A DNA stretch of 54,661 bases, counting the filler, from Asterionella formosa (Eukaryota): assembly GCA_002256025.1 (NCBI GenBank). It is 4 parts of 4 records of this genome, joined end to end, with 100 filler letters (N's around TTAATTAATTAA, not from the genome) between each part and the next. Parts side by side here need not be neighbours in the genome. Positions count along the whole stretch, not along the records: positions 13,695 to 27,287 come from NKIB01006574.1; 3 more parts are not named here. One strand, given 5' to 3'. The position numbers and the translations under genes were made by a program. Shown piece after piece: positions 5,935 to 52,600 of this stretch. A model generated the notes under the pieces. The model was not told where the DNA came from. It saw only the letters and a list, made by a program, of their open reading frames with translations, and did not search any database. Position 1 is the stretch's first letter, and each line of letters starts with the position of its first letter.

Positions 5935-8102
5935 ATGGCCTCTCTTGCTACTTTTGAGCAGAACGTTCTTCAGGACACAGGATGTGATCCCAACCAAGTT
6001 GTAACTGGAAAATCTTTAGTCTCATCTGCCCATTCTGCGCAGAGCTCCAATCACAGTTCCATCGTCGACAAAGGGGATGGTTCATCCTGTATAACTCCGG
6101 TAGCGTCCGTAGAAGATCAAGACGGAGCTAAGAAGGCCACGAAAAAGAAGAAAAAGGATAAAGACAAGAAAATCAAAGTTGACGAGAACGGAAACCAAAT
6201 AAAGAAGAAGAAAAAACCGAAGGCGAAGGAAAACGAGAACCTAGTAGGGATACCAATTTCGCAACAGAAGGAATTACAAAGAAAACGACTAGAAGTGGTG
6301 CCTTCAGAAGAGCACTTCTTGTCACAAACGGACGAACTAGATGAGTTCGAAACCTTCTTTGTCGAGCACATCCAAAAACAGGCTCCCGTTGCTCCTGGCG
6401 AAAGGAACAGTGATGTTTTTCCCTTCGAGAAGTGTTCGCATCAAACCTCGCCTCACTTCGGCATCCAATGTCTTCAGCCTCCGAAAGCTTCTTATCTCCA
6501 GAAAGCACCAGCCCGAACCGAAGGTACTGTGACCACAATCGCATCTACAGAATCATACCCTCCACCACCAGTGACTACTGTCGAGGTATATCACGACATG
6601 GAAAGGTACGATGACGACGATGACATCACACTAGAAACGATGGACAACCGCGGTCACTTGCTTCAGACTTTTTTACGGCGTAACGGGCACGACGATGAGC
6701 TTGCTCTACAAACCGCAATGGCATTTCAATCATTTCTGCAAAATCAGCGAGAGTTAATGGCGACCACCACTGGTATCGATAGTTCCTCGCAACGATCAGA
6801 TTCAAAAGCTTCTTCAACAGGAATATCACAGTACGACGACGAAGAATCTTTTGAACGCCATCAGAAGGACAAGATGAAACACGAAAGAGAATTTTCCCTC
6901 CGGGATGGTTGGGATGCAGGGTCATTTGTCTCGTATGATGATCATCTGGACCGAAAACCAGCCGCTGTTTCTAGGAAGCAATTTACGGAGCCAGCAAATG
7001 ACAATGAATGGACCAAGATTCGACGAAACGAAACCTTTATGCGAGGCAGGTTGGGAGATGGTGAGGAGAATACATACTCCGCTGCACGACCCCGCAATAT
7101 GGTGGCTGCGACCCAAAGGAGCATTGTGACTCAAACCCATCCCCTAAATCCTCTGATTCCAATACCTCAACCACCTCCAATGACTCCTCTCCAATATTAC
7201 AACGATTCTCCATTGATTCGCAAAGCGCCTGTATCATTACGTAGCTATCAGCAACAAATGTCATCGCTATCAATAGAACAACGCTCTTGTGTCATTCAAT
7301 TAAAGACGAAATGGGAAGAAAGGGCTGATAGAGGCAATAAGCCGCTTCCGGATGAGTGGTTCATTCGATTTGCAAAGTGTAGCCCAGGCAAACCGTTCGA
7401 TTACACGACTGCATGGAAGATCATGAAGAAGTTCGACTATCGATACTTGGACCTATCGATCCTGTCTATGGAGAGGCAACTCTTGACTAAGACACTATTT
7501 CCTTGTCCTGGCCTCAAGTCTAAGTCGGGTTATGACAGTAAGTATGGATTTAGTTGGTCGTCGGCTGAACCCTTTTCTATTCACGATTTCTAATCCCCCT
7601 TTCATGCCCTGCAAAAGTGTTTTACATGAAACCTAGTCGATACTTTCCCAAAAAGACTTCTGTGACGACGGTAATTGATAATTTGGTTTACGTGATGGAA
7701 TGCATGTTAGACGACGAGCAAACCGCTACCGATGGTGTTGGTTTTATCGCCAACATGACGGACTGGAGGATGGCAAACTTTTCAGTTCCATATTGTCACA
7801 AGTTCATGATGACACTTCAGGGTCGTCGCGTGCCGACTAGGGTTGGGCTTTTCTTGATTGTTAATCCTCCGGCCTGGTTTGGAAGCATTTGGGCTATTAT
7901 GAAGCCAATGTTGAGTGAAGGTTTTCGCAAAAAGGTTTACATGATCAGCTTTCATGCGATGGCGTTGCATTTGGCACCAGGATATGAAAGGTACTTGCCT
8001 GATGATATTTACAGTGGAATGGCATCAACAAATGCGATTGTGCAGAAGTTTATTGCAGATCGAAAGGTTATCGAGAGCTTCAGGATGCTTCAGTCCCGGT
8101 GA
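5935..8102 (+). CDS. CRAL-TRIO (Sec14-like) lipid-binding domain protein with long low-complexity N-terminus; exons 5935-7537, 7618-8102
   Basis: C-terminal CRAL-TRIO motifs: DEWFIRFAKC, DGVGFIANMTDW, LQGRRVPTRVGLFLIVNPPAWFGSIWAIMKPMLSEGFRKKV, YLPDDI.GG-like. An 80-nt phase-1 intron (GTAAGT 7538...AG 7617) joins the two ORFs in frame. Confidence 0.9.
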
Positions 8103-14387: not shown

Positions 14388-15074
14388 AATCACTAACTAT
14401 TCTGCACCTAGGAGTCAAGGTGGGGTGCACTTTCACAAAGTATTGTAAGTTAAATCTATAGTTAATGATTTATATATGTAAAAAATTGGTCAGTGTTTTT
14501 TTCATAACTGTGTTGCAGTTGTAAATTGTATTGCTATAGAAGTATGAGTATCAATGTCAAAAAAGTTCTGAACTGTTGACCAATGATGTTTGGTACTCCT
14601 ACCATTTTTAAGGAAACATAGAACTGTAGACAAGTGTCAAATGATGCTCAATTGTGGATTTTGCAACCTCAGAAGAGACAATAAGGAGCATTGACAACAT
14701 ATTTGGCTAGCTTGTTGTTGCTGCCAGGAACTGTTGAATTCCTGTCTTGTAGATTTGCCCTGCATAAAAGTACTATACCATGCATGTGAAATTGCATGCT
14801 CACCTTGCACCAATTAGATGATACCAAAACTTAAACAAAGCATGTCTTAATGTAATCTGTCCTAAAAATGAGCTGAGCTGCTTTAAACTAAAGTAAGTCA
14901 CTGCAAATTGTGGCAACTCTTTTCAACAAGAGGGAGTACCAGGAAGCATGACTAAGGAGCCAACTGTTGGATCCTTGTTGAATGTGTGGGGTTATGCCCC
15001 ATTTTGGTACCCTGACATGCAGCAAGCAAAACCATGTGAAGTTCAACAATTATATGTAAAAACTGTTGCAACAC

Positions 15075-18000
15075 TTATATCTCTTCCAATCCATCCGGAA
15101 AGATCATAGAACGCTCCAAAAGTCTGGTTACATCAATGTGCCTTAAGTTTCTAGTCAACATATCAACGTGATGAGCGGCCACCAAGGAGGCAAACTGAAC
15201 CGCTGATTCCAATGTCAAGGCTCGATTTGCCATGTACTGGTTTGTGGTGTCATCTATCTCAACAGACGGTTGTGCAGTACAAGTATCAAATGCCAACATG
15301 ACATTCTGTAGTTGCATTGAGACATCATTCTCTTCTGCTGTTTCATTTTCTTCAGTTGCCCTCCGACTGTACAAAAACTTGACTTCATCTGTCTCGTGTT
15401 CCCACATTTCATGACATCTGGAGAAGATTGCTTTTTTATCATCATTGCATTGCTTCTTTAGACTGACATAATTTTCACGCATGTACAATTGATATGGAGT
15501 TATAAACTTGATAGGTGATTTGGATGGAGAAGGAAGACGATCCATGTTACCACCCATATCCATGGATCTGTCCGACAGATCAGTCAATGAGCTAATATTG
15601 TTGTTGTTGACGTTGTTGTTACTGCTGCTGACAATTTTTGGAGTAGGTGTACTAGGCAGCGTTAGGCCGGTGTGTCGCAGCATGGCCGCAACCAAAAATC
15701 CAGCAGTAAAGGAGTCACCTGCCCCATTGGAGTTGATGACAGCATCACGAGGAAGTTCCACAGCATTGATTTTGGCAGTGCAATCAATCCAAGAATGTGG
15801 TAACATTTCACTCTTGGCAAAGCGTGATTCATCATTGCAATGTACGAAACTTCCTTTTTGTCCTCTGGTGACGACCACAATAGCAACACCACATTGTAGA
15901 AATAGATGGACTGCCTTTTTCATGATATTTTCATCCTCTTCAACATCAAAGCCCTCTAATTGACAACCTGTCAATAACTGTAATTCTTCGTCATTCATGT
16001 GCAGGATATCCACATGTTCTAGAGCAGCTCCAATCACTCGATCTTTTCGTAGATCGGAGGCAGTCCGAAGGACTCCTCCATCATATTGTGGCAAGTCGGG
16101 GACTCCATTCAAGTCCATGACAATGAGTCCTCCATCAACCATGATGCTTCTGGCTTCCACAAAAACTTGGGCCAAGGCTTCTCCTCGCAACAGAGGAAGC
16201 AAATGAGGATACCCAAACAAAAAGGCTCCATATGGTGGTGTGGCACCATCAACACGATCGTGATATAATTCCATCTCTTCATTGGACAGTTGTTGTTGAC
16301 TGTGGTCCAAACCTTTGGTGACATTTGCCAAGTTATGAATCATATCTTTCATGTCGTTAGCTGAAAATGTATCATTGGAGGCAGCATCAAAGAAACACCC
16401 TCGTCTACCATCTTTATAGATGGGCAAGACCGCCAATGCTGTTCGAGTTTTGCTGTCATAGTTGTTCCGTGCCATTCGAATGTATTTGGTGTTGACATTC
16501 CTGCAAGCACTACCACACTTTTCCATAAAGGACAGTAATTTATTTCCTGTATCATCGTTTCCAATTTTACATAGTGGAATCACAGAATGCACCACGGGAG
16601 GTGTGACTTGCATATAGAACCCATCCTCTAATGGGGCGCCATGGCACAGTCGTGCCAATGTTTGACATGCCATTGACACACTTCCTCCACCAATAGATGT
16701 TTCTCCTTGAAAGGTTTCAATTGATTCTCCGCCATTTCCACCAGTAGCTTGATGTAATTGCATATCAACACATGCCAACCCAGCACAAATGATTCGAGCA
16801 TCATGAGGAATGGCCCATTCAGTTGTTTTTTCTTCGAGTCGAATTCGAACTCGTTTCTTTGTTTTCGTAGTAGTACTATAATCACTCCCATTGGATTTTA
16901 TTGATGCGGCTTGGAGTTGTGTTTGCAGGTCATACATACCGTAAATTTTGGTTGACGAGGAGGATGATTTGACAAACAGATAGGAAAGTGCCTTTGCAAC
17001 ATTGTCGTGAGGCCATGATTTACTAGAAAAGAAATCACACAAAACAGCTGCATCCATCAATAATGGGACACGGAGCATGTTTTCTTCACGTATCGTGGGA
17101 GGGATGGTAATCACAGTATGTGGTTGATCCAAAAAGGCACGGGCAGTAATTGTATGAGTATTTGTTGATGATGAGGACATGTCCTCCACCAACATTCCTC
17201 GTTCCTTCATAGAATCTACAATGGCTTGATGTACAAATCCAGTAAAAAAGTCATTTCCTCCACCCACACAGTACACCCCCACTTGTTGATTCACAACATC
17301 CATAAAGCCTTGACACTTTAGTAAATAATCTGGTGCGTTGATAAAGGAACATCCTTCCAATATTGCTGCCAATGCATACAATAATGCTGATGGTAATCTT
17401 TCATGTTTTGCTGTATCAGTAGATTCTACAGCGTCCAACAAATCTTTGGCCGTTTGGTACTTGACTAATGTGATGGGACGAGTCTCGTCGCCATCATAAT
17501 AATATTCACCAACATGTCGATAATTCCAAACAACACTAGTATGTCCAACAACTCCATGCCTCCATTTAAAATATCGTATATCAGACCTTATCCATTGTAT
17601 CACTTCCGAGGCAGGTTCATCACCTTCTTCCTCTTCTTCTTTGTTGTTGCTGTACCCACGAAAGACTTTTAATTTATTCATTTCTTCTTTCAATTGACGT
17701 ACTAAATCATAGTCAAGTATCTGAGACTCCAACAAGGCATCTCCAAGTCTTGTTGTTGTCATGTCCTGTATAATAATAATTGTCATTAAAATCAGTCAAT
17801 ATAAATATTAGCCACATTTATTGAGGTTCATCAATATTCACAACAGAGGTAACAAAAGGAAATACGCCATTCCGACAAAACAACAAACAAACGCGTCGCA
17901 ATAAATCAATCCATACAGACTAAATAAAATACAAAGTATGTGAACAGTACGTACCCATCCACCAATAGCAGCCATGGTTGCCTTGGCAAAGCCCCCAAAT

Positions 18001-18461
18001 GGATCTGATTGTTCTAATGGTTGTTGTGTTTTACTCCCAAAAAAGGTGGAATTTGTTGCTGTTGATGATTTGCCTTGACCTTGTGGTCCATACCAATGTA
18101 ATTTCATCCGATGTGCCAATATACCAGCAATGGCAATCATACTTGAATATTCTCCCACACCAACAAGTAACATTCCAAAACTTCCACGTGTTTTCGGCGA
18201 ATGAGTTGGATCTTTTTCTAATAGTAATTGAGGAGTTGCTGGTTTTGTTGGAGGAGGAGTAGTCATGTTGTACCGTCGTTGATCCTGTTGTTCATGGATA
18301 CTGGAATTGGAATTGTTGTTGTTATTGTTCCAATGATGCCGATAGGAGGATGGACTAATCTTTGCAGTTGGAGTAGGAGGAGGTGGTGGACCAAAGTCCG
18401 TTGTATGGATCGTATTTGTAGAAGTTGTGCTGTCAAAGCTACTGACTCCAGCACTAGACAT
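15075..18461 (-). CDS. Fusion protein: degenerate myo-inositol-1-phosphate synthase + PfkB-family carbohydrate kinase + HMG-box; exons 18461-17955 and 17765-15075 (~1065 aa)
   Basis: A 189-nt phase-0 intron (GT at 17954, AG at 17766) restores the MIPS motif GGW|D. Other MIPS-like motifs: GMLLVGVG, LDYDLVRQL, IRSDIRYFK, PSALLYALAAILEGCSFIN, PLLMD, LSYL. PfkB motifs: AGLACVD, GGGS, KIGNDDTG, DLN, NDEE, VVTRGQKGS, NSNGAGDSFTAGFL. HMG-like segment: PIKFITPYQLYMRENYVSLKK...CHEMWEHETDEVKFLYSRRA. The start ATG is inferred. Confidence 0.88.
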
Positions 18462-21400
18462 GATTGCCTGAAGATAATTGTGTTTGGATGGATGACTATC
18501 GGTATCGTTGTATGAAACAATACAATAAATTACTAATGGAGGATGAAAAAAAAACGTCAATATGTTCTTGTGAAACGAAAGCAAATGTGGGGAATCGATG
18601 CCAACGATCAAAGCAGCTACCGTAGCTGATGCTGGAGGGGATTCCAACAACGATTAAATCTGATGATGATCATCCACACAGGCCTGTGTAGGTATGTAGG
18701 TATTTATGTATGTAGACACTACATAGTACCGTATATTCATTTCAGCATAAATTCATCAATGTATAGGCTAGGCAATGACATTGACATTTAAATGTACATA
18801 GATGAATACATAATGAAATAAAACAGCCGCCGAGCAGAACATATTGAAGCCAAGCAGACTCGTCATGAATTGATGATTCTGTTGCTAATTTATCGGTATT
18901 TACGGTAGACTGACGCTAGACTGCCGGTTGACATTTATACAATTGACAAATGTTTAAATGTCCATGTACAAAAAGTAACGGTGGTCGGTGTCAGTTACTA
19001 CAGGTAGTAACTACATACCGGGAAAGCACTTCGTACTGTGTAGCCATGTACCCGTACAGGAACACGATGAAAAATAGCTACAATGTACGTGACGGCATAC
19101 CGGTACTTCTGCCTTCTAAAGTTTATAAATGTGAAAGTTGGCAGAATAACAACGTGATAATTATTCTACACATGCAACATGTTGTGCTTCAACTACACTA
19201 CAGGTAGATGCGACTAAAAGGGCAATTAATTTTGGTGGTAAAAAGATTTCTAAATCCTTCGCATTGTTAAAAGCTAAATTAATTTCGTTTCATCCCTGCA
19301 ATCAAGAGAAAGGAAATGAGGGGGTCAATCGAAAATTATTTCTTTGTAGAAGTAGTTTCATCACGATGAAGCCAGACAAAACTACCAGTACTACTTATAT
19401 ATACAAAGGATTGTCACAATGATGAGCTTGATTCAAGCGACAATTACTCTACTGGTGCTAACTGGGATGTTTCGCTCCGCATTCCCACAGTGCTGGCTGT
19501 TGACCTCGAATTATGCTAACATCATGTCATGAGTGCAACCATTTTACAGAAATAAGTCGAAGAGTTGTCTGTATTTGAATGCAGCTTGTTGTGGAAACGA
19601 AAATCAAAGTGCCACAATGGAAATGTCGCCCACCAAAGCATCAAATGCTATCACAAGCGCCACAACAGCAACGAATGACATCTACAAAATCAAGGAGGAC
19701 AAGAGGAGCTTTTTTCAGGACACACAAGTGACAACAAGCGCCCACAACTAGCACGCAAGCATCGAAGCGACAATGATACGGGAAGATCTCACTGCCAAGA
19801 ACTAACACAAGGCATAATGAGTGCTGCAACAGCAATGACATCGAAAAAATCAAGAACAACAGTACCGGAAGATCTCATTGCTAAGAAGCAAGGCATAATG
19901 ATAATCACATCTATGAATTCATAATGAAATACATTGTTGGCATAACACCACTACTCCTTTACACTGTAGCTTCAATGGCGATTTGATTGTTTGATTGATT
20001 TTCGACTAGAAATAGTACAGCTTTACTGGCGAATATGACATACCATCACACCATGATACATGAAGAATATGTGACGAAGCTAGTAAATTTGGGTCCCATT
20101 ATACTGTCCCTATTTTGTATAGGAAATCTCATCCGTTTAATGTACATAGTCTCCAATGAATCCAAATAGACAGGGCTGTTGCCATTAAAGGTTGTTTTTA
20201 GATCCGTAGTGATCTAAAAAGTTACCGCCATCATGGTCATTTGAAAGTCACTAGCTTTGTCGTGTTCATTGATTTTTCGGGGTATCAAATCAATTTTGAC
20301 CAATGATTACTATGAACTAGTCCAAAAAATATCATAGGGTTTTATTAACAAACAACCTCATCAACATATTCGGGTAAAGTAGAAAACAAGTGTTAGCGTT
20401 AACAACAAATCCGGAAAACTGGAAAAATTTGACTACAGGCATTGTTGCATGTGTACTGTTGTATCTGCTATAATCCCGCTGTCCAATAACACTCGCATGG
20501 TGGATTACCAGAACACTCAGTGCCAAGCAGCTTTTTTATGACGGAATAAGTAGAATACATACCATCTTTTTACGTGAAGTTCATGTCAGCTTGCTCGAGA
20601 AATGCGGTTTTTATGAGTAACATACTAGACGTGAACATAAACTCTGTGCATCTTATTTTATAATTAGCATCTAAATATATTAATCAAAACCAATGTAACA
20701 TACATATATTCATTGGGTACATGCATATGCATACCAACTATGTTCATGTGTTGATTTTGCTAGCTACGTCTGTAAATGAAAAAACCGATAGGCCTAACAG
20801 TTTTGCTGTATGACCCACTGCCCCAAAAATTCTCAGCATGACGTATCATTTTTTGATTGATCATATAGAAATACTGATTGATCATAGTAGTACCAAAAAA
20901 ACTGATTGATTGATTAAAAAGAAAGCTACTTGTGGGGAGCAAGATGGCGAGGGGCATTGCGTTACACTCATCATATATATATATATATCAATTAGTTTCA
21001 AATCAATAGATCATACCATATGCTTATGATCAATACAGCACTCTCTAATAACCTAACGTACAAATTTGATTGATCATACAGACACTCCCATTGATATAAC
21101 AAAATTATCATAAACATGTCAAAAATAGTTGAATAATCAATCAGTTTTTTACGTTTGCAGAGTAAAACGTTAGATCTAATGGAAAATCTATTCACAGACG
21201 TAGTATGATTTTATCCATCATCCTAATCAATATTTTTATCGTTATCATCAAAATGAATGTTGACTCCTCTAGGGAGCTAATAATGAAAAGAATGAATAAG
21301 GTGGGAGGTAATACAGTTGCACTATTTACATTTCTCAATGTTAGGGTCAAAATCGAAGATGCTGTTAAGGTTGAAATTCTCGATGTAGATGATCAGTTAG

Positions 21401-34850: not shown

Positions 34851-36326
34851 TTACCAGAAAGAACATTCGATAACCTCCCATATTTGATAAGCTGTCATAA
34901 CTGAGGCAATGCCAATCAACACACCCACAAGAACATCAAGAGGATAATGAAATTGATCACGGACTCGACTGTATGCAACCAGGCCCCCAACAACCAATGG
35001 ACTTAGAGTATAGGGGGCATAATGGAACTTTTCCTCGAAGAATAATGATAGGAGCAGCATGGCAGTAGTGGCATAGCTGGAGTGTGATGAGGGAAATGAT
35101 TGCTCAGCATCTCGTGGGTCATACCTTACCATTTCATCATAATTTGGTCTTCTTTTAGGATAAAAATACTTCAAACAGTCAGTGCTGAATCCTGAAAGGC
35201 CAATGGCTATAAACAAAATGCAGCATCTTGAAATGCCATCCCAAGGATAGACGAACCAATCAGCAACAAGAAAGCAAATAATTGGCAACACCCCACATAG
35301 CAGAAACAATTTAAATTTAGATACCGACTCAGTTGGTCTCGGATGCTCTTGGTTTTGTTCTGGAACAATCATTGATAAAGGTTTGAAGATTATATTTGCA
35401 AGCACACAAAAGCAAAAGCATAAGAACAAGAGAAACAAATGTCCTGCAACGACTTCCTCATATCTCAAGTTGACAAACTTAAGAATAGCTATCAGTTGCT
35501 TCTGGTTATTGACCTTGTTTTCGAGTACATGAGGCTCGCCAGCAAGCATCGTGGGGCTTGGCTCATAGTTTCGCCTGATGTCAATGACAGCCAAGGTGCA
35601 GCTGTCAGCAAGTAAATGACAGGCCTTTGAAAGTACTTGGTAGTGACCATGGTGAGGCACTTCATCAAAGCTGTACATGATGGTGACTAAATCAAAGGTT
35701 TCCCAAGGAAGATTTGTCTCTTCTGCGTTGCCAATGAGAAAGTGTGGTGAACAAGACCCATAAAATGCATACTTCGGATTGTCGAGAAGAAACTTTGCAG
35801 GTTCCAAATCAGAACTACGCAACTCAGCCATATCAATCATATCCTTTGAAGTGTTGACGCCAAGGATCACAGCTGCATCTTGACAAGCTCCTTGCAATGC
35901 TCGAGTCGACATTCCAATGCAGAAACAAAGATCAAGCACATTGGCCTTCCCAATGTTTTGACGAAGTCCTTTGGCAATAGTTATGCGAACATTCTCTCCG
36001 AAGAAGGCAGAAAAGTCGATAAGCTTGGTCTCTAATGGAGCAAGTGCAGCGTGGATTGCCCCAAGTAAACCTGTGTTTCCGAACGTGTGAATCTTGGGAT
36101 ATTTGGATGGATCCTGGAGGCATGTCGTCCTGGGACCTGTTGCGAGGCTACCAGCGTCTACGTGCATGACAACCGATACTCCAACGGCAACGTAAAAAAG
36201 CACCTTGATTGACTGCTTCATGCTTCTCTCGATTGCTTGTTTGAAGGATGGTGAGCACATCTCTTGGTTGACGTTGTAGACAGAGACGAAGATAAGAAGG
36301 AGAACACCGAAAAAGGAAAGCTTCAT
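34851..36326 (-). CDS. Chimeric ORF: degenerate SAM-dependent methyltransferase (type 11/UbiE-like) fused to a PAP2/lipid-phosphate phosphatase
   Basis: MTase part: IHTFGNTGLLGAIHA, VLDLCFCIG, LGVNTS..MI, GNAEET.LP..TFDLVTIMY.FDEVP. PAP2 part: K.....RP (KYFYPKRRP), SFPSSHSS, SRVRDQFHYPLDV plus TM helices. One open frame of 491 aa. Confidence 0.75.
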   Translation of the reverse strand: MKLSFFGVLLLIFVSVYNVNQEMCSPSFKQAIERSMKQSIKVLFYVAVGVSVVMHVDAGSLATGPRTTCLQDPSKYPKIHTFGNTGLLGAIHAALAPLETKLIDFSAFFGENVRITIAKGLRQNIGKANVLDLCFCIGMSTRALQGACQDAAVILGVNTSKDMIDMAELRSSDLEPAKFLLDNPKYAFYGSCSPHFLIGNAEETNLPWETFDLVTIMYSFDEVPHHGHYQVLSKACHLLADSCTLAVIDIRRNYEPSPTMLAGEPHVLENKVNNQKQLIAILKFVNLRYEEVVAGHLFLLFLCFCFCVLANIIFKPLSMIVPEQNQEHPRPTESVSKFKLFLLCGVLPIICFLVADWFVYPWDGISRCCILFIAIGLSGFSTDCLKYFYPKRRPNYDEMVRYDPRDAEQSFPSSHSSYATTAMLLLSLFFEEKFHYAPYTLSPLVVGGLVAYSRVRDQFHYPLDVLVGVLIGIASVMTAYQIWEVIECSFW

Positions 36327-37136
36327 TTCAGATTATCAATCTGAGTATTTCGAGGACAATCAGTAGTCAGTAAAGAATCCATATCGATGTATCGAATCAA
36401 ATGCCTTCGATTGTACCTACTGTAACATGAGAGTGCAAAACTCCCCTCAGGAAGTTCAATCGGCATCATATCATGCCACCTTTTCACCATGTACATCGAT
36501 TGCAATCATGGTCCGGTACTCGAATTCTCACCTCGTTTAACCAACAACAAAATGATACTTTTGTCACATGACATAATCTTGAACGAACAATGGCTCCGTA
36601 ACCCGAGATTCGAATTCTTTTCATCGGAAATGCAAATTGCAGTACGCTGGTACCAGTACCCCCATCGGTGACGAGAGACAGGTGGACACGATAGATGTCA
36701 GAATTTAACCGGTTATTGTGCAGAGGTATGTAGGAAAGAACAACTGAACAGAACATTATCTAATTCCGGGTTCTTTTTTGTATCAATCTACTCAGTGTTA
36801 GTGTCCGCTCGGCCTGTTGAATACCATGATGCAGCGGGATCGCTGCCATTCATTAACCGTCAAGAAGAGCAAATACCTCTGCATTTGAGAAGGACGTCGA
36901 TTCATCATCATCGATATAGCACCGGATTTTGAGTGTTAACACGATAAGGAGGCGCACGGATGGATATACATTTTAGTCCTGACATGACCCGAAGGAAACG
37001 ACAAAACAATGAGGAGCTACCGCTTTCCAAGTAATTCTTCAATGCTTTGCGATACCAATGCAACTTTCAACACTCTGTGATGAATGTGACACGTAGATAC
37101 AAAGACAAACCATAAATCATTCTCGCCAGTGTTGTT

Positions 37137-39199: not shown

Positions 39200-40576
39200 T
39201 CATGCTCCATCGCCTCCCTGAACAACATCCCTATGAGCAAAGCCCTTGTTCATGTATATTTCGGACTCCAAATCATTTAAAAACTGAGCTTTATCCACTG
39301 AGGCCGCCTGTCTACGACCGCTTTCGGATATATCCATTTTCAATCGCCCCTTGGTTTGATTAATTTGGAATGTGTCATCTCCAACTGATGTCGCATATGC
39401 TTCAATCACACTGGCAGTGAAAAAGTTTTCATCTTGTTCCAATAGTGGGCCATTCTCATAGGTTGTATCCACAGATGTGGCCTTACAACGAGTCCAATCT
39501 GTGGTAAGATGAACTCGAGGACAATCATGCGTAATGCCCCCAATACACAACCCTTTAATTTCATTGGTCCGGTGTGCAGCAGGCATGTGCAAGTACTGAT
39601 AATACTTGCCACTCCCTGTTGCTGGGTACAATTGCAATTGTGGTTTTAACGTAAATAAGAAGGAATCAGCATTGTCGTAAAAGTGCGATACATTAGTTCC
39701 CGGTGCTCCAAACCACTTTGAACTCAACTTCCAAGGGCATTCTGTAAAGTATCCAAACACTTCCCCTCGTGTTGTTTGAATAACAATCGTCGTGGGGCCT
39801 TGATATCCAATGAGTGCTTGTTGGAGTATTTCAAAGGACGATCCATCATCGAGATTGTTGTAGAGCCTTCGCCAGTTCCCTTGTAATTTGCTAGAAAGCA
39901 ATGCAAGTGAGAGGAGATCAAGTGGTATATCGGACTGTTTGTCGAGAATAGGGAATTGAAGAACTGGTGTCTTTCCAGGGCTAAATTCCCGAAGTAGAAT
40001 ACCGTGAAAGAACGTCGCAACAGCAGTGTATATCTGAGGCAATTTCATGTTGGCCCACTCCATGAACAGAGGCCTGGAGGATAGGTCAACCAAGTGCCAC
40101 TCCGCTGGCACCGCAGTGCCAAGTACGAGAGAGTCCTCCACAAATAGGTTGTCGTGCCGGCAGTCAGTTGTCTGCAACACACGAGAGGCCACGGAAATGC
40201 GATATATCCATTCCAGCAGTGTCGCCTTTGATTCAGCTTGAACATTCTGGGTACATGTCCACAACACGTCCAACAATGGCCTAGGTCCTCGGCGACCCAG
40301 CAGGACAGAAATGCCCTCCATGTATTTGTTCAGGGGCGTGTCTATCAAACAAAACGCCGATAGGATGCTCTGGTGCAATAGAGATGACGTGCAGTCATCA
40401 GGGAGATCGAGCGATGGGATCGCGGCAGTTTCGCTGCTGATGCGCTCGGCCACAACAGAGACATCTTCGTCGTACAGGCGGAGCAATTGGTCCAGTTCGT
40501 CTTCTTGGAAAGGAAAGCTATCCAAGATGCTTTCCTTATCGATTGACAAGGACGATGAGCTTGCGTTGTCTAACAT
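39200..40576 (-). CDS. TLDc domain protein
   Basis: WRRLY...DDGSSF..L...LIGYQGPT.IVIQT..GEVFGYF...W......FG...SFLFTL.P...Y; CIGG; IEAY. The start may lie further upstream. Confidence 0.9.
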   Translation of the reverse strand: MLDNASSSSLSIDKESILDSFPFQEDELDQLLRLYDEDVSVVAERISSETAAIPSLDLPDDCTSSLLHQSILSAFCLIDTPLNKYMEGISVLLGRRGPRPLLDVLWTCTQNVQAESKATLLEWIYRISVASRVLQTTDCRHDNLFVEDSLVLGTAVPAEWHLVDLSSRPLFMEWANMKLPQIYTAVATFFHGILLREFSPGKTPVLQFPILDKQSDIPLDLLSLALLSSKLQGNWRRLYNNLDDGSSFEILQQALIGYQGPTTIVIQTTRGEVFGYFTECPWKLSSKWFGAPGTNVSHFYDNADSFLFTLKPQLQLYPATGSGKYYQYLHMPAAHRTNEIKGLCIGGITHDCPRVHLTTDWTRCKATSVDTTYENGPLLEQDENFFTASVIEAYATSVGDDTFQINQTKGRLKMDISESGRRQAASVDKAQFLNDLESEIYMNKGFAHRDVVQGGDGA

Positions 40577-40744
40577 TCCTGGGGCTGGTGGCGTTGGAAT
40601 GCTGACAGATTTTACAATGTAACAGTGTGGATGACTATGAAATAGTGTACAAAAGGCAGTTGCTTATAATTAGTTCAGAATCAACATCAGCTACCGATGG
40701 ATAGCGAAGTGAATTCATATAGCGGTACCAGGTACCACTTAAAA

Positions 40745-40951: not shown

Positions 40952-42027
40952 GCATATTTTTCTATCTGTACATNNNNNNNNNNNNNNNNNNNNNNNNNNN
41001 NNNNNNNNNNNNNNNNNTTAATTAATTAANNNNNNNNNNNNNNNNNNNNNNNNNNNNNNNNNNNNNNNNNNNNGCCTTCCTCTTTTTAACTTTTGTTTCA
41101 GCCTCCAGAGCCAGATGACAAAGGATAAAGAATTGATCATGGTCATCATAATCAAAGAATTGATGATTGCTTTCATTATCAAAAAATTGATTACTGATGA
41201 CATCATTACCATCGTTGATATTCATGGCACCTTCTTCAGTCCAATGTTGATCCACTTGTTTGTCATTGTGCAGTGACAATGATGATATGGTGCTGATTGC
41301 TTGAAAACCTGAAAGGGGACGATGGCAAGCGGAAGTGTATAGACAATCTTGCATGTCTGTGTTGACTCATGGCAAATCAAGAATTTAGCAGGTATGTCAG
41401 CTATATATTGTATACTGGTACATGATACGCGTAGTTTTCCTACATGGTTTTAGTAATGGAAAATTATCGAAATAGTCTGGAGGGAAACTTGGAGGGATAT
41501 GCACATGATTGTAGCCAGCCCGTAACCGTTGAATTTTCGTGATGCTTTTTGGTGATACAATTTCATTTTTATTTTTGTGGAGAATGGATTTTTTCGGTTT
41601 AAATCGAGTAGCCGTTAAATGATACTTTTTCAAAAAATTGATACCAATCCGAAAATGATAGGAACGACCCTAACGGTGCAACAACGCCCTACTGCTACAC
41701 AATGAGCATAACAGTAAGGCATTTTTTAGGTTCTTTGCTCACATATGGCTGGTTTGATTACCGGGTATAATTTGTACGGACAAATATTCGCAATATTCGG
41801 ACTTTCCCGGAACTCCCTGCAACATCGTTGTTCATCTCTACAGCCCATTTGGTCCCTGACGCGTCCTTACAGGATACAAGAAAGCAATAGAGGGCTTCGG
41901 GACGCAATTTCAACAAGGGACAAGGGATTGAAAACCCAGACTGAATCCAGTCTATTTTAGACTGAAATCAGTCTAGCCGGAAAGAATCCGATATATAACA
42001 ATCGAAGCCCACCAATATCTTGTTCCC

Positions 42028-43971
42028 ATGGCCGACAACAGCGACGCAGGAGAGGAGCCACCAAGGGACGACGAAGGCTTGCTGCTCGAGTACGACGTGA
42101 TCTTGTGCGGAACGGGACTTGGGCAATCCATTCTGGCATCCGCCTTGGCCAGAGCAGGCAAGAGCATTCTTCATGTCGACGCGAGAGACTTTTACGGAGA
42201 AACTGATAGTGTTCTGACCCTGCCTTACATTCGAAATGGAGGCATATGGAATGTCGAAGTAATGGAGGAAGAAATAAATGAGTCCTGCGAGAACATCCCA
42301 ATGCATACTCCACATCTGACACTGCATTCCACGAGTCAGCTCGAAAAGGTATCCATCCGTGTCGGTACAGAGGTTGATACTCCCTATGGACGAGGCAAAG
42401 TCATTTCGTTACCTTCGAGCGAGTCGAAATCTGTATCTATTTCGCTCGACCCATGGATGCTGGCGAATGGAAAATCACCCACCCTTTGTGTTGGAATAAT
42501 TGACGTGGACACAGACGACTTAACAGCCCATCTGGCAAAGCAATCGATTCAAGCTATTTCACTGAGTCATGCTCAACGTATTCTGCATTCTCAATCTAGA
42601 TCCTTTGCACTTGATTTGAGTCCGAATCTAATTTTTGCCTCGGGAGTTGCCGTGGCATGCTTTTTGACGTCGGGTGTTTCTGATTATCTTGAGTTCAAGT
42701 CAGTCGAAGGGTTGCTCTGGTTCCAAGGTGGTCAGCTCGCACGTGTCCCGTGCAGCAAGGGAGATGTATTCGCAAGCCAGCTCCTCAAACCCATGGACAA
42801 GCGACGATTGATGAAATTTTTACAAGTTGTAATGGACTATGGGATCAGCCAACAGTATTCACAAGCTCAGCATGATAATGAAGCAACATCCTTAGTGAAT
42901 GAAGCAACTGTTCAGTCGCTAAATGAACGCATGTTAAATCAAGGTCGATCACTGAGTCGACCTCAAAACAAGGCAGTTTCTACGAATGATTTAGAAGAAC
43001 TAATAAAAGAAATGGAGAGTGAAGACCGATCGCTACTATCCTATCTCCAGGAAAAACACAATCTATCGCCTAATTTGATGACACTTGTTCGATATGCTCT
43101 TGCGCTGGAAACCTCCTTGGAATCGACATCGTTGGAGCAAGGTATGAAGAGTCTGTGCCAACATTTGCAAGGATTGGGTAAATTCGGAACCACTGCTTTT
43201 TTGACTCCAATGTATGGATCTGGGGAGTTTTCCCAGGCATACTGTCGGTCGGCTGCAGTTCATGGTGGAACATACCTTTTGAGACGGCAACCACGTGAGA
43301 TTGTGGTGGGCAACGATGGTATAGTAGACGGTGTCGTGTTAGTGGATGGCGACATGAAAACAACCAAAACTGTAAAGTGCAAGCATGTCATTACCTCACG
43401 GGCATCCCTACCGACTACTACCATGCAGTATATTCTACGAAGAATCAGTATCGTTGTGGGACCAATTGTGAGTGACCAACCCGAGCAACGTCATGTGATC
43501 TTGATACCACCAGCATCAAAGGATATTGGAAATTCCAATGTCATTCACGGTCTGGTATTGGATTGGTATTCTCGAGTAGCAGCTTCAGGAACGACAATCT
43601 TACATTTAACGACAACAGTGAGCAATCTAGAGGACGTGAGAATACTAGATCGAGCCTCCAAATCCATGGTACCTCCAGGATCGATAGAGATTTATCAAGT
43701 CACCTTCAGCCACGTTTTGCCTACGTCAGAGTCGCCAAAGCTGCCCGGTCTTCACGTTTTTCCTTCCAGTGGTCAACGCCTAGTGGCGGACAAGGTATTT
43801 CAAGAAGCCAAGATCATCTTTGACCATATTTGTCCCAATTTGGATTTTCTAAAATTATCAGCTGAGATGGTCACTGCTGTGCAGGAGCGTCAAATGGGCC
43901 GTGACGACGAAGATGACGAAAAGTTGCTGTTGGAGAGCGCCTTTGGTATGCTTGAAGGAGAGGGTGCCTAG
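42028..43971 (+). CDS. Rab escort protein (REP/CHM; Rab-GDI family)
   Basis: YDVILCGTGLGQSILASALARAGKSILHVD..DFYG, SRSFALDL.P, SGVSDYLEFK, VPCSKGDVF...L..MDKRRLMKFL, GKFG.TAFL.PMYGSGEFSQAYCRSAAVHGGTYLLR. Confidence 0.93.
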   Translation: MADNSDAGEEPPRDDEGLLLEYDVILCGTGLGQSILASALARAGKSILHVDARDFYGETDSVLTLPYIRNGGIWNVEVMEEEINESCENIPMHTPHLTLHSTSQLEKVSIRVGTEVDTPYGRGKVISLPSSESKSVSISLDPWMLANGKSPTLCVGIIDVDTDDLTAHLAKQSIQAISLSHAQRILHSQSRSFALDLSPNLIFASGVAVACFLTSGVSDYLEFKSVEGLLWFQGGQLARVPCSKGDVFASQLLKPMDKRRLMKFLQVVMDYGISQQYSQAQHDNEATSLVNEATVQSLNERMLNQGRSLSRPQNKAVSTNDLEELIKEMESEDRSLLSYLQEKHNLSPNLMTLVRYALALETSLESTSLEQGMKSLCQHLQGLGKFGTTAFLTPMYGSGEFSQAYCRSAAVHGGTYLLRRQPREIVVGNDGIVDGVVLVDGDMKTTKTVKCKHVITSRASLPTTTMQYILRRISIVVGPIVSDQPEQRHVILIPPASKDIGNSNVIHGLVLDWYSRVAASGTTILHLTTTVSNLEDVRILDRASKSMVPPGSIEIYQVTFSHVLPTSESPKLPGLHVFPSSGQRLVADKVFQEAKIIFDHICPNLDFLKLSAEMVTAVQERQMGRDDEDDEKLLLESAFGMLEGEGA

Positions 43972-46025: not shown

Positions 46026-47697
46026 CTAAAATGATGCTACCGATACCTCGCTTGGTTCCACAACATCTGACCCTTCCACGGAAGGTATATCATCACGATC
46101 ATGTGGTAAATTCAACAATCGCATGAAACCGAGGCCTTGAGGAACGATTGAAAACTTATTCCATTCTGCATGGGACGAATAAAAATGTGTCTTGATATGG
46201 TCCATATTACATGTTGCAGCAACTCCATCCATCTGATAAATCTCTCGGCAGTAGTTTAATAATGATGGAGTCAAAATGACAAGTCGGGTATTGGCTCGAA
46301 AGTAAAACGCATACACTTCGTCAAATCGTAGGAGCGTGACAAAGAGTCGTATGTCAGCATCCGTCAAAGTATCACCCGTCAGAAATCGTTGATGTTGCAA
46401 GACAGAGTCTGCCTTGTCAAATGCCTGCGTTAGTTCCGATATTGCCTTGTCATATCCCAACTGATTTTTGGCAAATCCACATCGGTATACACCATGAATC
46501 ATGAGGGGGGAAAGCCATTCAATTACTTCATTCAACTTTTCTGGGTCAGGGTCATCCTCCGTGTACAAATCAATATCAGGATTTTTGGCAAATGCATTGA
46601 AACTTGAATTCAGCATATATGAAATATCTGAGGATTCGTTGTTGACCACCGTTTTAAGTTTCTTGTCCCAAAGAAATGGAACCACATATTTTCCAGCATT
46701 GTCCCCCGCTTGTTCATAAATATCTCGAATCGAGAAGGCCCCGAATTCCGGATCCGGCTCATTTCCAGGAAACGCCGAAGGAAAGGGACCGCCTCGACCA
46801 GCTGTATTGGTCAACGGCTCACCGTCGGGATTACCAAATACCCATCCACGTTGCTCCTCATCCGTTCCTTGCTTTGTTAGTTGCCACGTTGGGTGAACAA
46901 TGGTAACTGATACACAGTCATCTAGTCCCTTGAGAGCACGTACAATGAGACATCTATGAGAACCAGGACATGCATACGAAGCATAAATATGATACCTATC
47001 CTTTTCTGCTGCAAACTTGTCATTTTCGCCTGTGAAACATAATGTTGGAGTGAGCTCGGACCCTACCAATTTGAGCAACTCTTGGGACAGTCACAAGGCA
47101 AAAGAACATAAATTTCGCTACGAAATACGCACCTGTGGTTACAAATTCTCGCCATTCTCGTTCATCTGGAACCATGTGTCTTGCAGGGGTCGGTACAGCA
47201 CTTGGTTTGACAGGTGGACTAAATATGGTTGATTCGTTTCTCAGTTGTTTCCTCAATGCGGTGTCACAGTCCGGAACATCCCTGGAGAGTACCTGCTTGT
47301 TGGACGATTCGGCTCCACCAGTCGCAATCTGTTCGTCTCCTCTCGTTTCTACAATTTTAAGTCTTCCAATGACACGTCCTTCGCTTTCATACACATCACT
47401 ATCCGGATCTTCCATGGTTTCTCTCACTGTGGCTCGTCCCAGCCCCATTGCCCCAAACATGTGTCGTCCCACAGGAAGTGCCGATGCGTGACATTCGTCA
47501 TCTCCTCCATGCAACGTGCCTTTCGCATCGTATGTGGCCCTGTAACCACGCAACAGAGCTTCTGCCTCTTGTCGGCGTTTGCGCAATTCCTTTTCCCTCT
47601 TCTTCTGCTGCATATACCACGCATCCACACCAGCGCCGGACAAATCGGCTGGGGGCTTTTTAGGTACGATTTGAGACATCTTGGACTTGTCTCTCAT
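46026..47697 (-). CDS. Glutathionyl-hydroquinone reductase (ECM4/YqjG, Xi-class GST) with N-terminal extension; exons 47697-47133 and 47029-46026
   Basis: EKDRYHIYASYACPGSHR, VPFLWDKK..TVVNNESSDI, GVYRCGFA, RFLTGD.LT.ADIRLFVTLLRFDEVY..YF, HIK.HFY.SH, IVP.G. A 103-nt phase-1 intron spans 47030-47132. The start ATG is inferred, and there is a possible 5' intron at ~47750-47829. Confidence 0.9.
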
Positions 47698-49678: not shown

Positions 49679-52600
49679 TTAAAGTGACTTCTTCTTCCCT
49701 TTCTTGTTTTTCACTGCCTTGAACCCCTCTTCATCCTCTTGTGGTTCATAGTTTTTCGCATTCAAAATAGTTTCCATGCCAGCCCATTTTGCCGATCCTT
49801 TGCGGCGCTGATAAAACAAGAGATACGCTCCCCCAGTCACTGATGCATCCCCGGATGTACTTCCAACATGGGAGTCATTGTAACGATACCAGTTATGGTC
49901 TTTCGAATTGCGCACACTTGCAGTATAGTGACCACTATTCGCTGTTGAACCACTATGTTCACTCACACCAAACAGTTCGTAAATCGGTGGGGCTTCTTCG
50001 TCGATTGGGCCGAGGATGTATGGTCGCATGTCTAACTTGTCGATTGGAAAACTAACTGTATCTTCAATCTTTTTTCGAACGACCCCGTGACTTCGAACCT
50101 CGTAGGTAAATCGCTTCAGATGCACGATAAGAATGTCGGGGACAGTCCACAATGCAAGCATTTTCAATGCACAAACATGTTTTTTGCAGTTTGGACAATA
50201 CCACGCATTGTTTTCGTCAAGCTGCTCTCCTTCAGTGAATTTTTCCAAACATTCTTTTAATGAAATCCTTGAATGACCTTTCTTGGGAACGACAGGGACA
50301 GATATAGAAGAATAAACGTCAAATTTGATACTTTCTCGTCCACATACAGGGCAAGTAAGGTGACTGCGATGCATTCCTTGACAGTGGTCTACAATGATAC
50401 TATCGTGTCGTAATAAGTGTCTACTCCAAGATTCAGTAGCCACTTGACTATCTGGCATTCCCTTCCCTTCAAATTCTTCCACATATGGCTTACTCTTCAC
50501 ACGATTGCAGTCTTCGTGAATGCCATCCATCAAAAAAGAGCAAAACTCATGACTGTCATGTTGATATGCATTGTTGAATTGCGGTGCAAAGGCCGCAATG
50601 GTTTGTTTCAATAGCCGTGGGGCCAACGCTGCGTATTCGCCACTCCAGACGTCGTTTAAAAGTGAGGCATATGCAGTTGCCACGATACCACCACTGCCGA
50701 GGGGATTCGATGTATTAAGATCATTTAAGTACGAGCCCTTCAAGAAATATTTGGTTATCGGTTCGATGTGATTCAAGCATTGAAGAATACTGTTCATGAA
50801 ACAGGAGTTTCCCAAATTATGAAGTCCGACAGCCCCAGGAGCAGGAGGCACACCGCGAAGCGATTCACGGACAAAACCAGCGCCACGTGCATGTAGCGGC
50901 TTCATGATTTCAACAGGAGGATTTCGTGAGTCGAATGCATACGTGATGGTAGCCGGTCCATTATGCTCGGCAATCTTTAGATGTGTACCCAGATCACATA
51001 TTTCTTCTCCGTATAGATTGATCCATCTAATCATTGGAGGACATGGGACTGGTTTAGAGCCGTCTTGTGATAACAGCGATTCGAATCCTTTTGGCATGTT
51101 GGCTTTTTCCTGTGCTACTTCGATCAAGACCTGCCTCGTTCGTCCTAACAATAGAAAATGGATCTGCTCGCCATTCTCTAACGAGTCAATTGTTTCCAGA
51201 ATGGCACCACCTTCCAATGGGTGCACTGGATCTGTCTCCTTGCCGGTTGCAACTATTTTCCCCCTGTACCATTTTGGCCTTGTTACAAATGACGAAGATT
51301 CTCGGACCTCAACCACGAGCCCAACTTGAACATCATCTCGCCATCGTTTTGTATGAGTCCATAGTGGAGCAACTGTATTGAGAGCAGGTTTATCATCTGG
51401 AATTGCAATCTCCTTCCTCCGCCTCTTCAACTTAATATCCCACCGTGATGCCCATCCTGCGTAATGGACGACTACAATTTCATCCGTGATATCTCGAACA
51501 ATTGCCTCGTACCATTTACCAGTGGTGTCTTGCGCATCAACAAAATCTCCCGGTTGAAGTCGTTCTTCCAACTCCAACGCCGCTCGTGGCCACCTAGTCG
51601 AAGGGGATGTTCGTGTTTCGATTAGAATGTGTACACTGTTTTGATGCCCCTTTCCATTCTGTCTTTGCACCCATTCCAAAACTGTCATATTAGATTTTTC
51701 TTTCTTCTTTTTACTCAGCAGCTTTCCATCCAAATGATCAAGTTCGATCAAATCATATCCGTCCCCGTCAACTGTTGCTTGTGTGGTTCCGTCTTTTCTC
51801 AACGTATTCCGTCGGCACCATACTCGCACGCATGACAAGCTCTTTTCAGGTACTACTTCTTTCAGTAAGGCTGGAACAGCATCAGCAACCAATGATGATT
51901 GTGGAACGAGACAAAACAAATCTTCGTCATATCCGGCCCCCACCGTTCCATCGACAACTTTGTATATAAACTTTACAGGGTATAACTCAGCTACAGCAAT
52001 CATCCGGGGCACTTGCTGTTCTTGCATGAGCTTGGACATTGGTGACATATGAAGCTGCGTTGCTGTCACCGATATGGGAGCTGGCAACAACAAGACAGGT
52101 CGGAGAAATTCAATTGGATGCGACTGACCATTCTTGGGTTTGCCGTGGTGATACACTACTGCTGGGCTTTGCAAAGGATTAGCTTGAAACGCTACAGAAT
52201 GTCCGTCTTCGCACAATGCGCCGTGAACTGACCGGAGGAGCTGAAGAATATTGAGCTGATATAGTCACTATGGAACAAGAATTTGACACGACGAAATCCA
52301 AAGTAACTTACCTCATAGAATCGCTCTGGAACGCCACAGCAGCAAACTTTGTTGAGAGAGCTTCCATTTTCTAAACTCTGCATGGCTTGTGGTGATCCAA
52401 CCACGACGTTTGGTCGCAGCAAGAGCGGGTGACCATCGACCGATAGTTTCGATGCATCGATGGGGCCGGGCTCGTGGAAGCTACTTGACAACGTTAATCC
52501 TTGCGCTTCTATTGCTAGTCGCAAGGCCATCCTTACACGGTGTTCCTCGTCAGGGGAAACTGGCTGATTCAAGGCCCATGTCAGCCAATTTTGAAGATAT

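Follow-up and report, generated by a model that had tools for sequence, protein, structure and literature searches.

Introduction

Described systems that resemble the one reported here include a plant kinase, a plant synthase and a bacterial kinase. Maize MIK is described in an excerpt of PMC4765147 as a myo-inositol kinase of the PfkB family, and Arabidopsis MIPS1, a myo-inositol-phosphate synthase (MIPS), acts in the nucleus according to the available sections of two papers (PMC3597657; PMC13210883). The Escherichia coli PfkB kinase YdjH is described, second-hand and in a partial text (PMC9602453), as preferring long-chain carboxylated sugars. For diatoms, the available part of Kroth 2008 lists three other fusions and treats the synthase in general terms only (PMC2173943), and PMC6742357 and PMC10276504, in the parts available, refer to INO1 or MIPS but to no kinase. 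The inositol and sugar-phosphate metabolism of diatoms has been poorly mapped so far. Here we analyzed a gene of the diatom Asterionella formosa (assembly GCA_002256025.1), located at positions 15,075 to 18,461 of a stretch of 54,661 nucleotides, filler included (the window), in the part derived from record NKIB01006574.1. Its product joins a MIPS-like half to a PfkB kinase and an HMG box, in a family that is annotated simply as MIPS.

Our analysis shows that the gene is the diatom paralogue of a more ancient MIPS-PfkB fusion of ochrophytes; this paralogue gained an HMG insertion and a basic linker, and in the A. formosa lineage its MIPS half has lost cofactor and substrate residues, with fold-forming and fusion-specific ones kept. 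We found no description of a MIPS-kinase-HMG fusion in the literature searched, from which subscription journals were largely absent and in which supplements (PMC6742357 S1, the Kroth tables) could list members; to that extent, the remark in an earlier note on this DNA that the architecture was not recognised from any characterised protein stands.

A single transcript encodes all three domains

The earlier note had proposed one canonical intron and a single product of about 1065 amino acids, and both are borne out by transcripts. The fusion gene lies on the minus strand, where a 906-codon open frame (15075-17795) covers the kinase, the HMG segment and the larger share of the MIPS-like part; once the 189-nucleotide intron is removed, exon 1 contributes 169 codons and the spliced product has 1065 amino acids. 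Four sequencing runs were compared (X1 to X4; X2 was assigned to RNA by guess), and the runs containing the gene are labelled as algae, lake-water or freshwater metagenomes. X1, X2 and X3, from three studies, each yielded one contig of 3.4-3.5 kb, spanning approximately 14860-18560, from which exactly the 189-nucleotide intron is absent, with no indels listed relative to the gene. The X4 contigs are fragmentary and show no exon joint. The gene is genuine and expressed, with one mRNA for all three domains. Moreover, because the RNA contigs span the gene, skip the intron exactly and carry no indels, the deletions in the MIPS part described below are real and transcribed.

The idea that two genes are present, or that the splice is wrong, was discarded on the basis of the single open frame and the RNA contigs joining the exons. 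More broadly, we regard an artefact of mis-assembly or of two adjacent genes as having next to no chance of being correct: a splice is needed to join exons 1 and 2 and there are assembly gaps elsewhere in the window, but the MIPS, kinase and HMG parts share one frame, three studies each supplied a single RNA contig that runs across the whole gene, and 183 homologues, complete MMETSP transcripts among them, were found.

The S/T-S/T-Y/F-R-H motif of exon 1 recurs in 17 of the 27 homologues with a long N-terminus. As a separate observation, X3 differs from the assembly by 25 letters in 600 bases across exon 1 and the leader (17954-18553), and by 1 letter in 2,900 bases across exon 2 (14870-17764). 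X4 carries the exon-1 variants of X3, and about half of the 18 altered exon-1 codons are non-synonymous; these variants suggest an exon-1 haplotype that has diverged.

The MIPS half lacks an active site and retains its fold-forming residues

The MIPS/INO1-like character of the N-terminal half, which had been predicted from the sequence, was confirmed by profile and structural matches. Exon 2 matches Pfam NAD_binding_5 with an E-value of 6.7e-17 (62.4 bits versus a cut-off of 25), exon 1 matches it weakly (E 0.087), and the domain also matches solved MIPS in the PDB; PF01658 was not detected in the Pfam search of the A. formosa protein. By aligning the protein with solved MIPS we mapped 15 active-site positions, which have catalytic and substrate roles in the family (DxKxGQTK, NHLGNND, four lysines and two aspartates); two of the lysines were paired by their spacing. 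The A. formosa copy keeps 2 of the 15, so the label 'pseudo' attached to it in the earlier note was right. The NAD-binding GxGGxNG motif of the family is broken, the NHLGNND, KLRVK and KRD motifs downstream of GNDFFTGFVHQ are deleted, and approximately 45-60 residues of the substrate flap are missing. Judging from these residues, the copy falls outside the active MIPS family.

To place this loss among relatives, we aligned the A. formosa protein with 119 listed homologues, excluding P0003, which is A. formosa's own. Of the aligned rows, 105 reach across the active site: 86 hold 15/15 residues, another 2 reach 13 through truncation, and 6 or fewer are left in the other 17. From the 17 low rows we excluded two probable fragments (P0102 and P0108) and two possible gene-model errors (P0043 and P0106), which left 13 decayed copies including that of A. 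formosa; the addition of P0274 gave a set of 14. Most diatoms retain an intact MIPS within the fusion, and the decayed copies show graded stages of loss, from 6/15 down to 0/15. Identity in the MIPS domain between A. formosa and 11 intact homologues is 0.44, compared with 0.79 for intact pairs. Across the 14 decayed copies, which are only about 50% identical to one another in this domain, catalytic residues are mostly kept in 0-3 copies and core residues in 13-14. Furthermore, a fusion-specific segment (DIRYFKWRHGVVGHT in A. formosa, recognized by YFKW) is present in 14/14 decayed and 65/82 intact copies, and in none of 70 stand-alone MIPS or 4 two-domain fusions. Strict co-evolution of this segment with the HMG box was considered and is not upheld: L030 carries the HMG box without the segment, and L011 the segment without the HMG box.

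Trees of the MIPS and kinase parts, both quick searches with SH-aLRT support only, gave end branches of 0.5-2.5 for the decayed MIPS copies versus a tree median of 0.26, and mostly ordinary kinase branches for the same copies. The kinase tree groups 12 decayed rows, the two fragments among them, with support 81 and places other decayed rows elsewhere; the decayed and intact labels need at least 4 changes on this tree, doubtful rows included. L001 and L034-L036 show further partial losses of MIPS, and these, together with P0198 and P0341, are partly decayed halves that resemble Seminavis-type sequences, which suggests several independent losses. Because the fold-forming residues are kept while the catalytic chemistry is lost, the MIPS half has the pattern of a pseudoenzyme, one that appears to have arisen more than once. 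The database label inositol-3-phosphate synthase is probably wrong for the decayed lineages.

In our view the dead MIPS probably persists as a structural scaffold, inositol synthesis being left to a presumed stand-alone MIPS paralogue of the kind seen in three other diatoms. The earlier suggestion that the dead half senses a metabolite found no support: the loss of the NAD-binding glycine motif and of the substrate flap makes a scaffold more likely than a sensor. A neutrally decaying remnant, retained merely through being in frame, would be consistent with the large deletions, the very long MIPS branches, the graded loss and a much higher polymorphism of exon 1 than of exon 2 across the runs compared. 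Nevertheless, it is very improbable given that copies so divergent from one another preserve structural and fusion-specific residues in 13-14 of 14 cases and catalytic residues mostly in 0-3.

The kinase half retains its catalytic motifs

The prediction of a PfkB kinase with an intact GAGD motif also held. Exon 2 matches Pfam PfkB at 2.8e-14 (53.6 bits versus a cut-off of 25.8), and the GAGD anion hole with the catalytic Asp, NxxE and the N-terminal substrate Asp are present in A. formosa, in 13/13 decayed copies and in 117-120 of the 120 rows. All seven kinase motifs are retained in the 13 decayed copies, and EEI forms the final residues in 90/120 rows. Identity to the 11 intact homologues is 0.63, compared with 0.65 for intact pairs. 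It is highly probable that this half is an active ATP-dependent small-molecule kinase.

The closest solved kinase is YdjH (Z 31.5, root-mean-square deviation (rmsd) 2.9, 308 aligned residues, with a model of homologue P0011, range 527-1075), which was also best in the profile search (E 1.8e-27). No inositol kinase, whether plant MIK or archaeal MI3K, is found among the best 60 of 104 profile matches or the 50 structural rows listed, which is not evidence of exclusion. No NCBIfam kinase model comes near its cut-off, the best for A. formosa reaching 40 bits versus 300 and that for the stand-alone relative P0337 64 versus 300, and the kinase lies outside every named PfkB subfamily (ribokinase, IolC, fructokinase, 1-PFK, KdgK). 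Its closest kin form an unassigned subfamily of eukaryotic PfkB kinases, marked by a near-invariant GYPH motif and present as stand-alone proteins in red algae (Porphyridium, Galdieria), Fibrocapsa and Stenamoeba; the stand-alone or GYPH-subfamily proteins noted are P0331, P0337, P0353, P0359, P0398, P0413 and P0417. Pattern scans of prokaryotes, which are insensitive, gave 7 matches to the GYPH kinase in 185,579 genomes, none confirmed, and 73 to algal-type MIPS, with one weak match at 31%; in a single-protein metagenome scan, 0 of 592 candidates were confirmed. In the GYPH kinase, Met replaces the usual Asn, which binds the sugar in PfkB kinases, and the lid Arg of GxRG aligns with an Arg of YdjH.

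With respect to the substrate, we tentatively favour free myo-inositol or a related cyclitol, at slightly less than even odds, because the kinase is fused to MIPS and plant MIK offers a precedent; structural neighbours point otherwise. The ancestral fusion would then have united the de novo synthesis of inositol monophosphate with its salvage, and the A. formosa copy would retain salvage alone. Alternatively, the enzyme could be a hexose, ketose or keto-sugar-acid kinase that fed hexose phosphate to MIPS in the ancestral fusion and now sits beside a spent partner. Known diatom fusions link consecutive reactions (PMC2173943, available part), and the closest solved relatives listed, YdjH and ribokinases, agree with this alternative, as does the alignment of the lid Arg. 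We nonetheless consider it unlikely, since every NCBIfam kinase model is far below cut-off, the invariant GYPH and the Met substitution are unlike fructokinase and ribokinase, and the HMG box is left unexplained.

An HMG box is inserted within the kinase

The third segment had been predicted to be an HMG box following the kinase. The fold was confirmed, whereas the placement was not: when the protein is aligned with stand-alone kinases, and also in the structural match of P0011 to YdjH, the box falls inside the kinase, between the GAGD helix and the last kinase helices. Pfam HMG_box scores 0.0037 (18.1 bits) on exon 2, and the isolated segment scores 5.2e-05 (24 bits) against PF00505, both under the 25.4 cut-off; 29 of 32 homologous segments match PF00505, which is precomputed for 23 of the 120 listed homologues. 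A model of the segment has a pLDDT of 86, with three helices at 95-97, and in a comparison with 48,161 chains its best 30 matches were all HMG boxes (Z 6.0-9.7; unrelated chains at most 4.5). Foldseek with this model returned nothing at E<=0.001, the rows listed being almost all HMG boxes, and its Atlas score of 0.84 is a lead only. The box is approximately 80% conserved, compared with 12-34% for the flanking linkers, and its identity between A. formosa and the 11 intact homologues (0.68) is similar to that of intact pairs (0.66). The core aromatics Tyr927 and Trp957 are present in 115/115 homologues, as is Tyr/Phe968. In addition, the kinase of the distant relatives P0332 and L032 (2454-2843) is interrupted at this site by an HMG-like insertion of more canonical appearance, possibly an early stage of the insertion.

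The surface of the box is unusual. HMG boxes that bend DNA carry a hydrophobic intercalating residue at one or both wedge sites and a basic binding face, a combination that is absent here: the mean net charge of the core is -0.4 over 115 homologues, four acidic residues are near-invariant, and alignment to TOX and NHP1 places T/S/Q/N at wedge site 1 and Lys (114/115) at wedge site 2, the two sites where intercalation is usual. Basic residues ahead of helix 1 are retained in most homologues.

A basic linker, KKRVRIR in A. formosa, lies between the MIPS and kinase parts. A related motif is found in 115/119 homologues, in a disordered stretch with pLDDT <50 in a homologue model (the full-length model has a pTM of 0.59); it is unmatched in four two-domain fusions inspected, although P0328 carries basic residues that are loosely similar. 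The pattern K-K/R-x-K/R occurs in 73/119 linkers and a strict RVxF in 12/119. The linker could be a nuclear localization signal (NLS) or a docking motif for protein phosphatase 1 (PP1). In a Chaetoceros-like group (P0082-like), the linker is of the strict RVxF type (KRSVKF and variants) where most others have RVRI, and PP1 docking is possible there.

The odds are about even that the HMG box and basic linker carry the protein into the nucleus or onto chromatin, where it would be a regulatory enzyme; contacts with proteins, or weak ones with nucleic acids, would then be more probable than DNA bending of the classical kind. In a different scenario, the enzyme is cytosolic and its HMG fold, repurposed and without relation to DNA, serves the kinase as an allosteric or protein-binding module or else docks on MIPS. 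The near-neutral box with its invariant Glu/Asp and without hydrophobic intercalators, the insertion directly behind the catalytic GAGD helix, the retention of the fusion-specific MIPS segment in all 14 decayed copies, and a linker with strict RVxF in some homologues rather than a clear NLS all speak for such a module. This scenario is nevertheless rather unlikely, considering the conserved basic residues ahead of helix 1, the many DNA-bound boxes among the fold matches and the imperfect association of the YFKW segment with the HMG box.

Distribution and origin of the fusion

The 183 homologues were found among 8000 scored candidates, and the 120 listed include proteins from Seminavis, Mayamaea, Epithemia, Nitzschia, Fistulifera, Amphora, Entomoneis, Chaetoceros and Cylindrotheca, annotated as MIPS or unnamed. 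The search for the same architecture in other diatoms, which the earlier note had called for, thus recovered a three-domain fusion that is diatom-wide. Diatoms also have a stand-alone MIPS of approximately 480 amino acids, 55-58% identical to the fused domain, and both forms occur together in Seminavis robusta, Cylindrotheca closterium and Amphora coffeaeformis. MIPS-PfkB proteins without the HMG box are found in Ectocarpus (P0468), Chrysoparadoxa (P0449), Phaeothamnion (P0302) and unnamed relatives, and the HMG box is absent from some diatom-like fusions (L027, L029, L031, L033). In an unrooted quick tree of 55 selected rows, 14 stand-alone MIPS copies form a clade (support 99) inside the two-domain fusions. 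No neighbour gene of the A. formosa fusion was matched at any of 51 loci. One further protein, P0252, labelled as coming from a Myxococcota metagenome-assembled genome, is 71% identical to a Nitzschia stand-alone MIPS and is probably diatom DNA in a bacterial bin.

As the simplest reading, with the tree unrooted, we propose that an ochrophyte MIPS-kinase fusion may have duplicated, after which one copy would have dropped the kinase and stayed the synthase. The other copy would have acquired the HMG box and the basic linker and, freed by its paralogue, could have lost synthase activity in some lineages.

Interpretation

Taken as a whole, the data are best explained by a small-molecule kinase built on a dead-MIPS scaffold with a regulatory HMG module, to which we assign a probability of roughly 0.4. 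The relaxation specific to one domain, with extra divergence in MIPS and none in the kinase or HMG box, supports this explanation, and a dead MIPS beside a preserved kinase and HMG box hints at a regulatory role. Several observations weigh against it. The closest solved kinases listed, headed by YdjH, hold no inositol kinase, and the earlier proposal of inositol as the substrate is not borne out by these matches. Since red algae, Fibrocapsa and Stenamoeba have stand-alone members of its subfamily, the GYPH kinase does not need MIPS, and its survival after synthase activity was lost weakens the case for a close metabolic link between the two. Over the 115 homologues the HMG core is near-neutral, has acidic residues that are invariant and is polar at both sites normally used for intercalation, so the proposed link to DNA or chromatin likewise went unconfirmed; only 73 of the 119 linkers have K-K/R-x-K/R; and the HMG box has been lost in at least one fusion (P0118/L011).

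A stronger version, in which the diatom fusion is a chromatin-associated metabolic regulator, is doubtful. Here the HMG box and linker would lead to DNA, where the kinase would make or read a phosphorylated cyclitol or sugar, and the synthase would repeatedly have turned into a pseudoenzyme scaffold; if true, this would amount to plant MIPS moonlighting in hard-wired form, combined with a kinase of new specificity. Irrespective of this, the analysis reveals a kinase subfamily common to red algae and red-plastid algae, and an enzyme with an HMG box within its fold. Because the decayed copies part MIPS catalysis from other roles, a non-catalytic MIPS function and the coupling of metabolites to chromatin become testable in diatoms.

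Features of the gene and neighbouring genes

Table 1. Features of the A. formosa fusion gene, in window positions.
Feature	Positions	Strand	Amino acids	Remarks
Exon 1	17955..18461	-	1-169	Low-complexity N-terminus, conserved S/T-S/T-Y/F-R-H motif, then start of the MIPS Rossmann fold
Spliceosomal intron	17766..17954	-		189 nt, GT..AG
Exon 2	15075..17765	-	170-1065	Ends with the stop codon
Pseudo-MIPS domain	16893..18185	-	~93-460	Split by the intron; fold-forming residues retained, active site gone
Decayed NAD-binding glycine motif	18141..18161	-		GVGEYSS; GLGGANG in intact homologues
Fusion-specific MIPS segment	17538..17582	-	231-245	DIRYFKWRHGVVGHT; pattern DIRYFKWxN/HGVVGHT
Decayed substrate-binding motif	17226..17258	-		GNDFFTGFVHQ; GTDFKAGQTKF in intact homologues
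Basic linker motif	16839..16859	-	472-478	KKRVRIR, between MIPS and kinase
PfkB/ribokinase-fold kinase, main part	15666..16805	-	490-869	CVD, GYPH, DLNG, NxxE and NGAGD motifs
Catalytic Asp of the kinase	15714-15716	-	853	In the NGAGD motif
HMG-box fold	15348..15509	-	922-975	Inside the kinase, flanked by two variable linkers
Last kinase-fold helices and C-terminal tail	15078..15227	-	1016-1065	Conserved EEI tail

Elsewhere in the window, one open frame on the minus strand (34854-36332) combines methyltransferase-like and PAP2 phosphatase domains. Other genes are ordinary eukaryotic ones (7569-8099, 39203-40663, 41977-43968, 46029-47090 and 49682-52264), namely CRAL/TRIO, TLDc, GDI/Rab escort, glutathione transferase and ubiquitin hydrolase, unconnected to inositol metabolism.

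Comparison with known systems

Eukaryotic MIPS/INO1 (PDB 1jkf, 1vko, 9m53, 9f2k) shares its fold with the intact homologue P0011 (Z 42.2, rmsd 2.7, 407 aligned residues), and intact diatom fusions hold all 15 active-site residues. However, the algal MIPS considered here are only about 30% identical to it and form their own group, the domain of the fusion is joined to a kinase, and in A. formosa the cofactor and substrate motifs are gone. Similarly, YdjH and other PfkB kinases (3in1, 3h49; ribokinase, IolC, fructokinase) resemble the fusion kinase in fold, 27% identity, GAGD, NxxE, the substrate Asp and the lid Arg, whereas the fusion kinase is distinguished by its eukaryotic GYPH subfamily and its HMG insertion. 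Described HMG boxes (TOX, NHP6A/HMGB, BAF57, SOX, UBF) have the same three-helix L fold and aromatic core, with Z up to 9.7, but the fusion box is at most 28% identical to the solved ones, near-neutral, polar at the wedge sites and embedded in an enzyme.

Plant MIK/lpa3 provides a functional precedent, with a PfkB fold beside MIPS in inositol phosphate synthesis (PMC4765147, excerpt); in plants it is a separate gene, and the likeness is one of function. Arabidopsis MIPS1, which is nuclear and binds ATXR5/6, offers a precedent for a catalysis-independent nuclear role of MIPS in the available sections of the two reports (PMC3597657; PMC13210883). It is, however, a normal enzyme that moonlights, whereas the diatom paralogue has a built-in HMG box and kinase, with catalysis lost in some lineages. 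Closest of all in organization, the ochrophyte two-domain MIPS-PfkB proteins (P0468, P0449, P0302) share the MIPS group, the kinase subfamily and the domain order, but are without the HMG box and the KKRVRI linker, have an intact MIPS and are annotated as MIPS or unnamed. Compared with all these systems, the fusion, which is apparently unstudied, combines known folds in a new domain arrangement, and its MIPS part has turned into a pseudoenzyme repeatedly.

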